Assembly: GCA_016705545.1 (NCBI GenBank)
Contig: JADIYA010000007.1
Location: 163,728-227,727 of the forward strand
Origin: Flavobacteriales bacterium
GTDB lineage: Bacteria > Bacteroidota > Bacteroidia > Flavobacteriales_F > PHOS-HE28
Direction: 5' to 3'
Length of the DNA: 64,000 bases
A program made the translations under genes and the position numbers. Below are positions 11,724 to 52,097 of the stretch, piece after piece. The notes below the pieces were generated by a model. The model was given only the letters and a program-made list of their open reading frames with translations, was not told where the DNA came from and made no database searches. Numbering within the stretch: position 1 is the first letter of the stretch; the number at the start of each line of letters is the position of its first letter.

Positions 11724-12014
11724 TTATTGCACCACCACTTCCTTCACCACTTCGCGTCCGGCCCGTTCATTTATCCGTGCAAGTATATCGGCACGCAGAT
11801 AACTGAGTTCTTGCCGCAGCGGTGCACTGTCCACATTGATGCGCAGGACGGCGTTACGCAGGCGGAGCGCGGTGGTATGGCGCGCCACCATGGCACCCGC
11901 AACTTCGGGCCATGCTTCCGCGATGGCGGCCTCGTCGAGGCGCTCTCGCATGCCTGCGCCATCGACCAGGTGTCCGATGGCCTCAGCCAGCGATTGCTCG
12001 TTGCGGCGTTTCAC
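11724..12014 (-). CDS. DUF721-type (DciA-like) small protein immediately downstream of recF.
   Basis: The C-terminal 96 aa of ORF 11724..12182 read VKRRNEQSLAEAIGHLVDGAGMRERLDEAAIAEAWPEVAGAMVARHTTALRLRNAVLRINVDSAPLRQELSYLRADILARINERAG. A DUF721 family protein downstream of recF is a commonly observed arrangement. The proposed GTG start at 12014 is uncertain, and the first 55 aa of the longer ORF look non-coding. Confidence 0.5.
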   Translation of the reverse strand: MKRRNEQSLAEAIGHLVDGAGMRERLDEAAIAEAWPEVAGAMVARHTTALRLRNAVLRINVDSAPLRQELSYLRADILARINERAGREVVKEVVVQ

Positions 12015-13116
12015 GGGTGATGCCTTCGTGGGTGAGGTGGAAGAAGCGCGTCTCGAGGTCGAGGCCATCGAGCGCGGCATGGAGCCGCTTCGGATCGGTG
12101 TCGGTGATGAGCACTTGCCCGAAGCGGTGATCGCTGAGCAGCTGCAGCAGGTGGCGCATGCGCTGCGGGTCGATCTTATCAAAGATGTCGTCGAGCAGCA
12201 GGATGGGGCGTTGGCCGGTGCGCTGCGTGGTGAGCTCGAATTGCGCCAGCTTCAGCGCGATCAGATAGGTCTTCTGCTGGCCTTGCGATCCGAAGCGCTT
12301 CAAGGGTTGGCCATCGAGCGTGAAGAGCAGGTCATCCTTGTGGACACCCGCCGTGGTGTGCTGCGCGGCGCGGTCGCGTTCCCAGCTCGCGGATAGCAGG
12401 TCGCGCATCGATGCGTCATTGAGCGGTGATCGGTATTCAAGCGCCACTTGCTCAGGCCCTGAGCTGATTGCGGAATAATGCTCCCGCAGCAGCGGTGCCA
12501 GATCACTGATGAACGCGCTGCGCGCGGAATGCACTGCAAAGGCGAGCACGCAAAGCTGCTCATCCCACGGCTCAAGGGTTGAAGGCTGTATTCCACCTCG
12601 TCCAGCTGCCTGCTTCAGCAACGCGTTGCGCTGGGTAAGCGCACGGTTGTAGCGGATCAGCGCATCGAGGAAGGGCTTATCGAATTGGGCGATGAGGCCA
12701 TCGATGAAGCGGCGGCGCACCTCGCTGCCGTCGAGGATCAGCTGGCCATCGTAAGGCGTGATCATCACCACCGGGTACCGGCCCACGTGGTCGGCCAAGC
12801 GGTCGTATTCCTTGCGGTTGCGGCTGAGCACCTTGCGCATGCCGCGCCGCACGCTGCAGAGAATTGCATCATCGCCCTCATCACCGCGCATCACCCCTTG
12901 CACCACGAAGAGCTCCTCACCGTGCCGAACATTGTACTGGTCCTGCGCCTCCAGGTATCCCTTGCCCAGTGCGAGGTAGTGGACCGCATCGAGCAGGTTG
13001 GTCTTGCCCACGCCATTCGGACCGGTGAAGCAGTTCACCTCAGCGCACAGGTCGGCTTCCGCTTCGCGGTGATTGCGGAAGTTGAGCGCATGCAGCCGGG
13101 CGAGATGAAAGGCCAT
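11983..13116 (-). CDS. recF: DNA replication and repair protein RecF.
   Basis: A 377-aa protein. Walker A GPNGVGKTNLLDAV, an SMC-like signature and a C-terminal LLLDDIFDKID Walker B motif. Confidence 0.9.
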   Translation of the reverse strand: MAFHLARLHALNFRNHREAEADLCAEVNCFTGPNGVGKTNLLDAVHYLALGKGYLEAQDQYNVRHGEELFVVQGVMRGDEGDDAILCSVRRGMRKVLSRNRKEYDRLADHVGRYPVVMITPYDGQLILDGSEVRRRFIDGLIAQFDKPFLDALIRYNRALTQRNALLKQAAGRGGIQPSTLEPWDEQLCVLAFAVHSARSAFISDLAPLLREHYSAISSGPEQVALEYRSPLNDASMRDLLSASWERDRAAQHTTAGVHKDDLLFTLDGQPLKRFGSQGQQKTYLIALKLAQFELTTQRTGQRPILLLDDIFDKIDPQRMRHLLQLLSDHRFGQVLITDTDPKRLHAALDGLDLETRFFHLTHEGITRETPQRAIAG

Positions 13117-13216
13117 GCGGCGAAGCTAACGGCACCGCGAGCGTCTGAAGCTGCGGTCATCAACTCAGTACAAGCGTGCTTTTATCTTCGGCCCCGCCTC
13201 ATCGCCTCGTTCCGCC

Positions 13217-14245
13217 ATGCAAACCCAACCCGTCGCCAAGCCTTCGCCCACCCAAGCTGCCAGCGCTGCAGCGGGAGCACGGCCCGTTTCGGCATTCATC
13301 GAGAAGCACTTCCTTCACTTCAACGCCGCCGCCCTCGTGGATGCCGCCAAGGGCTACAAGGAGCACTTGGGCAAGGGGAGGAAGATGATGATCACCCTGG
13401 CCGGGGCCATGAGCACCGGTGAGTTGGGCAAGATCCTCGCGGAGATGATCCGCCAAGGGAAGGTCGATATCATCAGCTGTACCGGCGCCAACCTAGAGGA
13501 AGACGTGATGAACCTGGTGGCGCACGACCACTATGAACGGATCCCCCACTACCGCGACCTCACCCCTATGCAAGAGCGCGCATTGCTCGACCGCGGCATG
13601 AATCGCGTCACCGACACCTGCATCCCCGAGCACGAGGCCTTCCGCCGTTTGGAGAAGCACGTCCTCGACCTCTGGACCGCCGACGATAAGAGCGGCAACC
13701 GCCGATTCCCGCACGAGTACTTCTACGCCATGATCAAGAGCGGCGTGCTGCAGCAGTACTACCAGATCGATCCGAAGGACAGCTGGATGGTGGCTGCGGC
13801 CGAGCGGAACCTGCCCATCATCTGCCCCGGTTGGGAGGACAGTACGCTGGGCAACATCTTCGCCGGCCATTGCATGACCGGCGATTGCAAGCCGCAGATG
13901 ATGAAGAGCGGCATCGAGTACATGATGTTCCTGGCCGAATGGTACACGAATAATTGCGGTACGGACGGCATCGGCTTCTTCCAGATCGGCGGAGGTATCG
14001 CGGGCGACTTCCCCATCTGCGTGGTGCCCATGCTGCATCAGGACCTTCAGCGCGATCACATCCCCTTCTGGAGCTTTTTCTGCCAGATCAGCGACAGCAC
14101 CACCAGCTACGGCAGTTATAGCGGAGCCGTGCCCAACGAGAAGATCACCTGGGGAAAGCTCGATACCGACACCCCGAAGCACATCATCGAGAGTGATGCT
14201 ACTATTGTGGCGCCCCTCATCTTCGCCTACGTCCTCGACATGTAA
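13217..14245 (+). CDS. Deoxyhypusine synthase family protein.
   Basis: A 342-aa protein. The motifs MMITLAGAMSTGELG, ISCTGANLEED, GGGIAGDFPICVVP and TSYGSYSGAVPNEKITWGK match the deoxyhypusine synthase fold, including the conserved active-site lysine region. Confidence 0.85.
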   Translation: MQTQPVAKPSPTQAASAAAGARPVSAFIEKHFLHFNAAALVDAAKGYKEHLGKGRKMMITLAGAMSTGELGKILAEMIRQGKVDIISCTGANLEEDVMNLVAHDHYERIPHYRDLTPMQERALLDRGMNRVTDTCIPEHEAFRRLEKHVLDLWTADDKSGNRRFPHEYFYAMIKSGVLQQYYQIDPKDSWMVAAAERNLPIICPGWEDSTLGNIFAGHCMTGDCKPQMMKSGIEYMMFLAEWYTNNCGTDGIGFFQIGGGIAGDFPICVVPMLHQDLQRDHIPFWSFFCQISDSTTSYGSYSGAVPNEKITWGKLDTDTPKHIIESDATIVAPLIFAYVLDM

Positions 14246-14251
14246 TCACCC

Positions 14252-14674
14252 ATGCAGCGCCTGATCCGCTCCTTCAACACCTTGACCGATGCGCTCAAGG
14301 AGACCTTGCAGGAACAATATCCTGACGGGATCGACACCTCGCACATCAAGACCATCCCCACCGCCAAAGGCGAGATGCTGCGGGTGATCGAGCTCAGTAC
14401 GCCTGAAGCCTTGTACCTGATCAAGATCAATGCGGAGAGCCGCGCGGAGATCGAGGAATTCCTGGATCAGGACAACGAGCCCGCCGCTGCCGGTGATGAT
14501 GACCTCGATGCAGAGGATGGAATCGAAGGCGAGGCGGATGACGAAGGTGATGGCATCGACGACGCCGATGACGCGGATGACGACGATGATACCAATGACG
14601 GCGACGGCGACGACGATGATGAGGACGATGACGGGGACGCCGGTGATGATGATAAGGACGATGACGAGGACTGA
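14252..14674 (+). CDS. Hypothetical protein with a 65-residue poly-Asp/Glu C-terminal tail, 6 bp downstream of the deoxyhypusine synthase gene.
   Basis: An N-terminal domain of about 75 aa: MQRLIRSFNTLTDALKETLQEQYPDGIDTSHIKTIPTAKGEMLRVIELSTPEALYLIKINAESRAEIEEFL. It is followed by DDDLDAEDGIEGEADDEGDGIDDADDADDDDDTNDGDGDDDDEDDDGDAGDDDKDDDED. I could not recognise the family. Confidence 0.55.
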   Translation: MQRLIRSFNTLTDALKETLQEQYPDGIDTSHIKTIPTAKGEMLRVIELSTPEALYLIKINAESRAEIEEFLDQDNEPAAAGDDDLDAEDGIEGEADDEGDGIDDADDADDDDDTNDGDGDDDDEDDDGDAGDDDKDDDED

Positions 14675-14699
14675 TTCCCGCTGAACCATGCTCCCGACG

Positions 14700-14736
14700 C
14701 AGGCCCCGGATAACCCTGGGGCCTGTTTACTTTCGG
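14700..14736 (+). terminator. Candidate rho-independent terminator after the acidic-tail gene.
   Basis: An 8-bp stem caggcccc / ggggcctg with a 10-nt loop, followed by tttactttc. It starts 26 bp after the stop at 14674. Confidence 0.45.
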
Positions 14737-14751
14737 GGCAACACCCGCAAC

Positions 14752-15168
14752 ATGAACGGCACCTTTCACATCGCCATTGCCACCACGGACCTTAAGCGCA
14801 TGAAGGCCTTCTACGGGAGATTCCTCGGCCTCAAGGAAGGTCGGAGCGCCAAGACCTGGGTCGATTTCGACTTCTTCGGCCACCAGCTCACCATCCAGGA
14901 AGTGCCCGTGACTTACCGGACCGCGCGCATCTACAACCCGGAATCGAATGTTCCCAGCGACCATTGGGGCATCGTGCTTTCCATGAGCGACTGGAAAAAA
15001 CTGCGCGACAAGCTCAAGAAGGTCGGCCATCCCTTCTTCATTGAGCCGCGCATGGTGATGAAGGGCGAAGTGGGTGAGCAGCGCAGCATGTTCATCGAGG
15101 ACCCCGATGGTCACGCGATCGAGTTCAAGGCTTTCGAGGATGCGTATGATCTGTTCCGTAAAGCATGA
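14752..15168 (+). CDS. VOC family protein (glyoxalase/bleomycin-resistance/dioxygenase fold).
   Basis: A 138-aa protein. MNGTFHIAIATTDLKRMKAFYGRFLGL...DPDGHAIEF is the typical VOC metal-binding His/Glu arrangement. Confidence 0.75.
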   Translation: MNGTFHIAIATTDLKRMKAFYGRFLGLKEGRSAKTWVDFDFFGHQLTIQEVPVTYRTARIYNPESNVPSDHWGIVLSMSDWKKLRDKLKKVGHPFFIEPRMVMKGEVGEQRSMFIEDPDGHAIEFKAFEDAYDLFRKA

Positions 15169-15362
15169 CCGCGCGCGGAGCCATCGTGCTCTTTTTATTC
15201 GGCCTCGCCCTCACCATCATCGGTGCAACGATCAAGATCATGCATTGGCCCTATGCGGATGCCCTGCTCACCGGAGCATCGCTCATGCAGACCATCGCTG
15301 TCCTGGTGCTCGCCTACAAGGTCTTCACCTACCCCGGCGCGAAGGGCTTCCTGGACTGTTGA
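15165..15362 (+). CDS. Small hypothetical membrane protein.
   Basis: A 65-aa ORF with two predicted TM helices (IVLFLFGLALTIIGATI and LMQTIAVLVLAYKVF). An ATGA overlap with the VOC gene stop suggests translational coupling. Confidence 0.35.
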   Translation: MTARGAIVLFLFGLALTIIGATIKIMHWPYADALLTGASLMQTIAVLVLAYKVFTYPGAKGFLDC

Positions 15363-51050: not shown

Positions 51051-52097
51051 TTAGGCCCCCAGCACCCCGCACAGATGCCACAGCAGACGTGCACCCACGT
51101 TGGCATCCCATTCATCCTTGCCGGGGCTCACCTCCACGAGATCGAAGCCGATGATGGTGCGCTTGGCGGCGAGGCGAGAGAGCAGATAGGTGGCTTCTTC
51201 GAAGGCGAGACCGCCCGGCACCGGCGTGCCCGTGTTTGGGCATAGCGTGGGGTCGAGCCCGTCGATGTCGAAGCTGATGTGCACCTTCTCCGGCAATGCG
51301 TTGATGATGGCCTCGCATTGCTGTTGCCAAGTAGCGCCTTCGAACTGCATGGCGCGGATGTCGGCGCTGCGCACAACGCGCACGCGGTCCTTCTGCTTCA
51401 GGAAGACATCGTTCTCCTGTTGGCAGAAGTCGCGGATGCCCACGCTCACGATGCGCTCCAGCTGCGGCAGCGCGAGCGCGTTGTGCATGATGCTGGCGTG
51501 GCTGTACAGGAAGCCTTCGTAGGCGATGCGCAGGTCGAGGTGCGCATCGATGTGCAGAATGCCGAATTTCTTGTGGCGCTTGGCCTGTGCGCGGAGGAGG
51601 CCGAGCGGCGTGCTGTGATCGCCGCCCACGAGGCCAACCCGTTTTCCCTTCTTCAACCAGTAGGCGCAGCGCTCCTCCACCCAATCGTTCATCACAGCGC
51701 ATTCCTCATTGATGAGCACCATGGCCTCGGCGGCTTTGGCGAGCTTTTTCGGACTCGTTTCGCCGGTCTGCGTCTCAATCACGAGCGCGGCGAGCTTCTT
51801 CAGGGTGGCGCTCTGCTGCTTCAAGGCCTTGGGTACTTCATCCATGGCGATGCCGCGTTTCCATAGCCCGGGGAACTCCGGATGGAATAGGTCCACTTGC
51901 AGGCTGGCTTCCCGGATGGCCTGGGGGCCCCGCGAGCATCCGCCGCCGTAGCTGGTGGTCACTTCCCACGGCACGGGCACGAGCACGATATCGGCCTCTT
52001 CGCAGGTGAAGGGCAGGCCGTAGATCTGCGCGCTGGGGTCAGCGGGGCTGTTCGGGTCGAAGGACTTGGTCTTGGCGGTCTTGCTCATGGCGGCCAA
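51051..52097 (-). CDS. Arginase/agmatinase/formiminoglutamase family protein (ureohydrolase).
   Basis: A 348-aa protein with Mn-binding motifs GGDHSTPLGL, ILHIDAHLDLR and SFDIDGLDP. Confidence 0.85.
   Translation of the reverse strand: MAAMSKTAKTKSFDPNSPADPSAQIYGLPFTCEEADIVLVPVPWEVTTSYGGGCSRGPQAIREASLQVDLFHPEFPGLWKRGIAMDEVPKALKQQSATLKKLAALVIETQTGETSPKKLAKAAEAMVLINEECAVMNDWVEERCAYWLKKGKRVGLVGGDHSTPLGLLRAQAKRHKKFGILHIDAHLDLRIAYEGFLYSHASIMHNALALPQLERIVSVGIRDFCQQENDVFLKQKDRVRVVRSADIRAMQFEGATWQQQCEAIINALPEKVHISFDIDGLDPTLCPNTGTPVPGGLAFEEATYLLSRLAAKRTIIGFDLVEVSPGKDEWDANVGARLLWHLCGVLGA

Follow-up and report, generated by a model that had tools for sequence, protein, structure and literature searches.

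The present report deals with two adjacent genes in a stretch of 64,000 nucleotides from a Flavobacteriales bacterium (GenBank assembly GCA_016705545.1, contig JADIYA010000007.1, positions 163,728 to 227,727 of the forward strand). This whole stretch is called the window in the following, and all coordinates are counted from its first letter. The first gene encodes a homologue of deoxyhypusine synthase (DHS) and is designated speY for the reasons given below, the second encodes a small protein with a long acidic tail and is simply called the small gene. The features of the pair are as follows:

13217..14245, plus strand: putative speY-type DHS homologue of 342 aa, Pfam domain DS
14246..14251, plus strand: intergenic spacer of 6 nt, TCACCC, read from the sequence
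14252..14473, plus strand: N-terminal globular domain of the small protein, residues 1-74 (profile searches, alignments A2 and A4, AlphaFold2)
14474..14674, plus strand: acidic tail of the small protein, residues 75-140, with the TGA stop (composition; TRF repeats)
14699..14736, plus strand: G+C-rich terminator-like hairpin with a T-rich tail, between the small gene and a VOC gene (scan, RNA folding)

The stop codon of speY (TAA, 14243-14245) is separated by only 6 nt from the start codon of the small gene (ATG at 14252), which extends over 14252-14674 on the plus strand, encodes 140 aa and lies in the same reading frame as speY. A spacer of this size implies that both genes would be transcribed together and, possibly, that their translation is coupled. 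Of the 11 pairs in the stem of the hairpin (14699-14726), 8 are G-C, and TTTACTTTCGG comes directly after the stem; the 80-nt intergenic RNA behind the small gene reaches a folding energy of -33.6 kcal/mol (z = -3.78), which was matched by none of 200 shuffled sequences. A first-pass annotation of this DNA, made from the letters alone, had described two genes 6 bp apart which are followed by a hairpin terminator, an arrangement in keeping with a two-gene operon. The coordinates bear out the spacing, a terminator-like hairpin does lie 3' of the pair, and the pair itself is real and closely spaced. Upstream of speY, on the opposite strand, recF and dciA are found. The gene arrangement of the window is shared by a metagenome-assembled genome (MAG) of Flavobacteriales from wastewater (GCA_963851565.1) and by three metagenome contigs.

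The enzyme

By its sequence, the window enzyme clearly belongs to the DHS superfamily: it matches the Pfam family DS (PF01916) with an E value of 1.5e-41 and 143 bits (cutoff 27), and this match spans residues 34-338 of the enzyme and positions 10-287 of the 288 positions of the profile. Solved structures of DHS enzymes, which are tetramers, are matched at E values of about 1e-9 only. The catalytic lysine of DHS, that is the residue which forms the enzyme-imine intermediate, is conserved. In detail, GSYSGAVPNEKITWGKL of the window enzyme aligns with GSDSGARPDEAVSWGKI in DHS chains, the human one included, so that K314 is placed opposite human DHS K329 in the WGK motif, and K314 is invariant among 11 aligned orthologues which are 70-76% identical to the window enzyme.

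According to the published account, SpeY homologues from six phyla couple two agmatines to N1,N9-bis(guanidino)homospermidine (G44G), and G44G is converted to homospermidine by a SpeB-like 'diagmatinase' (PMC13625781). The tested set includes SpeY from Winogradskyella algicola, a member of the Flavobacteriaceae in which the gene is part of a cluster of arginine decarboxylase (ADC), SpeB and SpeY; SpeY on its own in E. coli yields G44G, with no protein partner (PMC13625781; see also PMC9992855). This homospermidine route was established in the years 2024-2026, and homospermidine is the main polyamine in many Bacteroidota, a statement which that source makes for diverse bacterial phyla (PMC13625781). 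The view of the first-pass annotation, according to which bacterial DHS-like enzymes are spermidine-dependent and their substrates mostly unknown, is outdated by the coupling of agmatine to G44G by SpeY homologues (PMC13625781).

The gene context of the relatives fits this pathway. Among the Flavobacteriaceae DS genes with 70-76% identity to the enzyme of the window, most follow ADC and some belong to ADC-(SpeB)-DS clusters; at related loci the order is ADC-SpeB-DS in Polaribacter, Kordia and Tenacibaculum and dehydroquinate synthase-ADC-DS in Flavobacterium. ADC is also found directly upstream of two DS genes that are 96% and 92% identical to that of the window (L094, 3-737, and L095, 1480-2865). 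No ADC is present in the 64-kb window itself, where recF/dciA occupy the upstream side of speY. A gene of the arginase family is located 37 kb from speY:

51075-52001, minus strand: arginase-family gene (Pfam, E 1.3e-56)

Its product is 30% identical to the SpeB-like protein encoded in the ADC-SpeB-SpeY cluster of Polaribacter, and it could be a candidate G44G ureohydrolase or another ureohydrolase.

The DS match, the conserved catalytic lysine, the ADC context in relatives and the published function of homologues lead us to read 13217-14245 as a gene for SpeY, which by analogy with the tested homologues very probably couples two agmatines to G44G. Orthology is taken here from other DS genes of the Flavobacteriaceae, which are 70-76% identical and in part belong to the cluster type of W. 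algicola. What weighs against this assignment are the low scores with the NCBIfam models, namely 86.9 for NF002699 (G44G synthase), where the cutoff is 500, and 112.6 for NF001980 (homospermidine biosynthesis protein), where it is 450. The archaeal and eukaryotic DHS equivalogs (TIGR00321, NF002630 and others) give 76-111 bits against cutoffs of 304-434. Judged by these comparisons, the enzyme represents a divergent Bacteroidota subfamily which lies outside the reach of both bacterial models.

When compared to the described SpeY systems, the window enzyme shares the DS fold family and the WGK lysine, and some of its relatives stand in an ADC-(SpeB)-SpeY context like that of W. algicola. It differs from them in that speY is separated from ADC and has recF and dciA upstream, in that its scores fall far below the NCBIfam equivalog cutoffs, and in an additional N-terminal extension. 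Furthermore, the acidic-tail gene is unmentioned among the published clusters (ADC, SpeB/AIH, SpeY) in the parts of the source considered (PMC13625781).

The extension consists of 21 residues rich in Ala, Pro and Gln (MQTQPVAKPSPTQAASAAAGAR, 13217-13279) and has no counterpart in the Flavobacteriaceae orthologues; no match to it was found even in the relative with the 96% identical SpeY, and no alternative in-frame start exists before the conserved PVSAFIEKH of SpeY.

The small protein and its family

The tail of the small protein, which the first-pass annotation had described as 65 residues of poly-Asp/Glu, comprises 66 aa with 34 D, 7 E and a single K. This amounts to 41 acidic residues (62% D/E) and a net charge of -40, with the aspartates encoded by 17 GAT and 17 GAC codons. 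Presumably the tail is disordered. The preceding domain (residues 1-74) is acidic as well, with 14 D/E against 8 K/R, and has R3, P24, G26, Y55 and K58 as near-invariant residues in the family alignments. An AlphaFold2 model predicts a beta-alpha-beta-beta-beta-alpha topology for it (pLDDT 76.6).

Is the acidic tract translated at all? In more than 200 homologues the tail is acidic and in frame up to the stop, with differences in length and sequence, which argues that the tract is indeed translated. Acidic tails of 18-83 aa with 39-67% D/E are present at all of the more than 80 homologous loci, again without conservation of sequence, and the remaining two frames of the tail region are either rich in Met, Thr and Arg or full of stops. 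An untranslated GAT/GAC tract was rejected on the evidence of the in-frame acidic tails of the homologues and of the make-up of the other two frames. For the N-terminal domain, synonymous codon differences exceed non-synonymous ones in both relatives compared (18 versus 7 and 21 versus 11), indicating purifying selection on the encoded domain. Judged from frame and codon differences, the small protein is a real, translated and selected product. The first-pass annotation had named an untranslated or freely varying tract as evidence against its reading; of these two, translation in an acidic frame is borne out by the homologues, whereas length and sequence do vary.

The tail DNA contains imperfect tandem repeats of 27 and 33 nt (TRF, 14557-14675), and homologues that agree in 99-100% of their first 81 residues range in total length from 133 to 140 aa. 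Repeat slippage that keeps the frame may explain such differences among near-identical strains.

A search with the first 80 residues yielded 419 close homologues from Flavobacteriales MAGs, and for the best 120 of these the identity across the aligned portion of the domain is 82% or more. Every full-length close homologue carries an acidic tail and has a total length of 114-142 aa, the exceptions being four truncated or frameshifted entries. An exhaustive profile search, with clustering at 50% identity, gave 144 representative clusters; almost all of these proteins have 70-180 aa and begin with the domain. In a larger database, a Flavobacteriia-centred profile matched 6086 proteins, and a second profile matched 2904 proteins whose named top hits are from Alistipes/Rikenellaceae.

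The N-terminal domain had not been recognised in the first-pass annotation, and the curated libraries that we tried leave it so: Pfam, NCBIfam, PADLOC and PHROGs gave no match for the small protein, and Pfam gave no family common to the 41 family members scanned. A sub-threshold hit to DUF2344 (E 0.03), the single Pfam hit of the window protein up to an E value of 0.1, was disregarded. Profile searches of the domain against the sequences of the Protein Data Bank (PDB) returned E values of 0.13 or worse only, fold searches returned no convincing match, and a viral contig scan returned no relatives. In the literature on Bacteroidetes RNA polymerase accessories, on polyamines of Gramella, Zunongwangia and Salegentibacter and on Flavobacterium DHS, nothing on the small protein was found. 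On these comparisons, it belongs to an undescribed, Bacteroidota-wide family which consists of an acidic domain of about 74 aa and a variable acidic tail.

Members of this family (P0001, P0080, P0270-P0276, P0303, P0355 and others) carry public names such as 'DNA primase', '(DNA-directed) RNA polymerase subunit delta' or 'phosphopantothenoylcysteine synthetase/decarboxylase'. No domain evidence stands behind these three names, which are probably low-complexity artefacts of the tail. One member, P0204 (367 aa), continues after the domain and an acidic stretch with about 170 aa of Lys/Ser/Thr/Pro-rich repeats (…PKKTRSSRTTKA…) which resemble bacterial histone-H1-like tails and thereby hint that the family may be linked to the nucleoid.

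The first-pass annotation had also pointed out an exposed-looking lysine in the motif TAKGE. This residue, K39, is indeed placed on the loop of the predicted beta2-beta3 hairpin, but it is not conserved: many members, including speY-adjacent ones, have Q, N, H, R, S or G at this position, and the site reads AQNE (NAQNE), ANGD (NANGD), AHNE (NAHNE), ANNE, ARNE, ASNE or PGGD. The sole near-invariant lysine, K58, is located within the predicted strand beta4.

Conservation of the gene pair

In order to follow the pair across genomes, 80 genome loci were fetched starting from the small protein, one per species, of which 79 were informative; the named records are mostly from Flavobacteriaceae. The scan was made with the narrower Flavobacteriaceae alignment A3, as the 41 diverse domains of alignment A2 were too divergent for it. 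Since the A3 query biases these 80 loci towards Flavobacterium, the raw fraction suggests more independent events than there are. With this reservation, a DS gene was found immediately upstream of the small gene on the same strand at 64 of the 79 informative loci. ADC is present at 60 of these 64 and SpeB, in addition, at 6. Conservation across genomes, which the first-pass annotation had left to be checked, is therefore seen in these 64 loci and, in addition, in several divergent metagenome lineages.

The adjacency spans small proteins which are only about 30-35% identical and loci whose flanks differ. It is found in the clade of the window, in Polaribacter/Tenacibaculum, in Flavobacterium and in several metagenomic clades (represented by the sequences KRVIKDYNS..., QRKIVDCKK..., KKNVIKDYKS... 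and PRLITAFEK...), so that at least 6 mutually divergent lineages of the small protein have the pair. On a contig of about 1 kb (L093), DS is again directly upstream of the small gene. When metagenome loci were searched from the enzyme side, the small gene was located downstream of DS at 21 of 77 informative loci (DS 67-96% identical).

The distance between speY and the small gene has a median of 11 nt; it is 3-22 nt at 45 of the 64 loci and 74-92 nt at the other 19. The motif TAnnTTTG, the Bacteroidetes -7 promoter element, is found about 36 nt before the ATG of the small gene at 17 of the 19 long-gap loci (L011, L012, L014, L022, L028, L036, L039, L040, L050, L056, L063, L072, L078 and L083-L086). 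In this long-gap Flavobacterium subclade the spacer is expanded to about 86 nt and is A/T-rich upstream of the motif, which suggests that the small gene has its own promoter there. As all 17 loci with the motif are speY-adjacent, the small gene keeps its place after speY even where it seems to have a promoter of its own.

Neighbouring genes

Two further genes follow the pair in the window:

14752..15168, plus strand: VOC/glyoxalase-family gene of 138 aa (Pfam Glyoxalase, E 1.9e-09)
15165-15362, plus strand: ORF of 65 aa for a tiny membrane protein, which overlaps the VOC stop by 4 nt

A VOC gene directly after the small gene is found not only in the window, but also in Polaribacter (L008, 5313-5726; L021, 580-984), in one Tenacibaculum (L058, 6641-7048) and in L094 (2335-2748). 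The VOC proteins of the window and of Polaribacter are 34% identical. In some lineages all three genes, from speY to VOC, may therefore form the conserved unit, despite the hairpin that separates the small gene from VOC in the window. On the upstream side, recF/dciA take the place of ADC in the window and in its MAG, and the region 11983-13216 looks like the site of a recent rearrangement which split ADC from speY and left speY, the small gene and VOC together. The product of the 65-aa ORF matches the GldL N-terminal domain with an E value of 1.7e-05, just over the Pfam cutoff.

Discussion

The enzyme type of this locus has already been described. Its partner is an uncharacterised fourth component of the SpeY gene cluster, for which no curated family, fold match or literature was found. 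The joint explanation that we consider the best one, with a probability of roughly 40%, is a SpeY enzyme that is accompanied by a member of a polycation-binding accessory family.

According to this explanation, two agmatines would be joined to G44G by SpeY with the help of NAD and of the conserved lysine in its WGK motif, and a SpeB-like ureohydrolase would turn G44G into homospermidine; the substrates of SpeY would be small molecules and no protein. The polyanionic tail would bind polycations, either the guanidino and amino products of the pathway or basic macromolecules for which polyamines compete, and the conserved domain would dock the small protein on a specific partner. In the Flavobacteriales, the position after speY would tie the dosage of the small protein to polyamine synthesis, so that it could buffer, sense or hand on the cationic products.

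Binding of polycations by the tail is probable, given its net charge of -40 and its conservation in composition only, as tails which are kept in composition alone typically act electrostatically. The pairing of guanidinium and carboxylate groups is strong. For the small protein itself, we tentatively favour an accessory role linked to polyamines, in which it would buffer, sense or hand over, because such a role best fits an adjacency that is order-wide, tight and resistant to rearrangement. The polyamine-binding or chaperone-like partner considered in the first-pass annotation would thus come closest to the reading that is preferred here.

Several observations weigh against this explanation. 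At 12 of the 79 informative genome loci, aroB (dehydroquinate synthase) is immediately upstream of the small gene and ADC-speY is missing at that position. These loci include Christiangramia/Gramella, Marixanthomonas, Ulvibacter, Aureitalea and Thermobacterium, and a Zunongwangia protein shows the same aroB-adjacent arrangement lacking ADC-DS on metagenome contigs; at 3 of the 79 loci, all from Capnocytophaga, neither DS nor dehydroquinate synthase is upstream. Conversely, 56 of the 77 speY-like metagenome loci have no small gene or acidic ORF within 3 kb downstream, but unrelated genes. Several lineages, Rikenellaceae among them, have the small gene as a monocistronic unit with unrelated neighbours: it is divergent from ligA in Alistipes/Rikenellaceae, is flanked by an ECF sigma gene on one side and by DksA/TraR-ScpB-RluB on the other in a further lineage and stands beside two-component or TPR genes elsewhere outside the Flavobacteriales. 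A single tail per protein offers a small capacity when compared to millimolar polyamine pools. In addition, W. algicola SpeY forms G44G in E. coli in the absence of the small protein (PMC13625781), which by analogy makes the small protein dispensable for SpeY catalysis.

Given the aroB-adjacent loci, the monocistronic lineages and the 56 speY-like loci without the small gene, its function cannot be specific to SpeY or G44G. From its distribution, the small gene is an ancient Bacteroidota gene that has kept a position directly after speY in the Flavobacteriales and survives without speY at the locus.

Nearly as plausible is a general role of the small protein as a polyanion in Bacteroidota: it could mimic DNA, act as chaperone of or competitor for basic proteins that bind DNA or RNA, or be an accessory like the delta subunit of RNA polymerase, perhaps in association with that polymerase or with the nucleoid. 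Its position after speY would then reflect co-regulation or convenience and no part in polyamine chemistry. This is suggested by the phylum-wide occurrence of a family that is mostly stand-alone outside the Flavobacteriales, in the ligA, ECF sigma/DksA-ScpB-RluB and two-component/TPR contexts, by the retention of the small gene where ADC-speY was deleted at the locus and by the separate promoter motif at 17 loci. The entire protein is acidic, the domain included, and P0204 fuses the domain and an acidic stretch to an H1-like basic tail. Automatic names such as 'RNA polymerase subunit delta' and 'DNA primase' point in the same direction, though they probably derive from the tail alone. However, that the small gene has kept its exact place behind speY throughout the order, at distances of 3-22 nt and in spite of rearranged flanks, exceeds what would be expected for unrelated genes, and Pfam gave no match to the delta-subunit N-domain or any DNA-mimic family.

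Firmicutes RNA polymerase delta (RpoE) is similar in general build, as it is likewise small and joins a folded domain at the N-terminus to a long Asp/Glu tail, and the Joint Genome Institute (JGI) names some members of our family accordingly. The window protein differs from RpoE in phylum and gene context, has no Pfam match to the delta N-domain (HARE-HTH) and is predicted to have a beta-alpha-beta-beta-beta-alpha topology, unlike the winged-helix/HARE-HTH fold that is generally known for delta. DNA mimics of bacteria and phages, such as Ocr, DMP12/DMP19 and HI1450, and autoregulators with acidic tails (SSB, HMGB1, Hfq) are likewise small and very acidic and use their negative charge to imitate nucleic acid or to compete for basic partners. 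No sequence or fold similarity of the small protein to any of these was found, there were no phage homologues in the viral contig scan, and its charge resides in a presumably disordered, variable tail and not on a rigid surface as in the DNA mimics.

A narrower version of the polyamine-linked role would make the small protein a dedicated polycation handler of the pathway from agmatine via G44G to homospermidine, acting as its sensor, carrier or feedback regulator. The Asp-rich tail would then capture guanidino and amino products while the domain docks on a pathway enzyme or polyamine target. Feedback proteins of the ornithine decarboxylase antizyme type would offer a functional analogy if the small protein senses polyamines and modulates pathway enzymes, but antizymes are not homologous to it and are not polyanionic. 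We consider this version unlikely.

Less likely still is that the adjacency is inherited synteny without functional meaning and that the small protein does something unrelated. Most loci come from one family and heavily from Flavobacterium, so that the counts are phylogenetically inflated, and the small gene outlasts the deletion of ADC-speY at the locus. Mere inheritance fits poorly with the very short spacers and with a pair that is kept across lineages with small proteins about 30-35% identical and with different flanks.

Finally, the first-pass annotation had considered the small protein as a possible modification substrate; a lysine would then receive an aminobutyl-type group from the DHS homologue, as in the hypusination of eIF5A. 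An enzyme of the superfamily with the catalytic lysine is encoded here, as in the eukaryotic and archaeal systems of DHS and eIF5A/aIF5A. In the window, the two genes are adjacent and inferred to be co-transcribed, the small protein carries K39 at a predicted beta-hairpin tip with a geometry like that of the eIF5A target loop, and one lysine (K58) is nearly invariant. The proposal is nevertheless hardly credible, because K39 is replaced in many members, many of them directly after speY, because SpeY homologues take agmatine as donor and acceptor and require no acceptor protein, in place of spermidine plus a protein, and because the family occurs at loci without speY or never beside speY while most speY-like loci lack the family. 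K58 lies inside a predicted beta-strand, and no relationship of the small protein to eIF5A or EF-P could be detected.

For the polyamine field, the pair of speY and the small gene is a solid lead, though not in itself a surprising one. On either the polyamine-linked or the general reading, the misleading names 'DNA primase', 'RNA polymerase delta' and 'phosphopantothenoylcysteine synthetase/decarboxylase' are corrected. Should the small protein turn out to be a general DNA-mimic or chaperone factor, it would still be an uncharacterised, phylum-wide and probably abundant small protein which deserves a name. If, on the other hand, it does handle polyamines, the acidic-tail protein would represent the first known case of a protein that serves the homospermidine pathway as buffer, sensor or carrier, and an orphan family of thousands of members would gain a function as a new class of polyamine-homeostasis protein.

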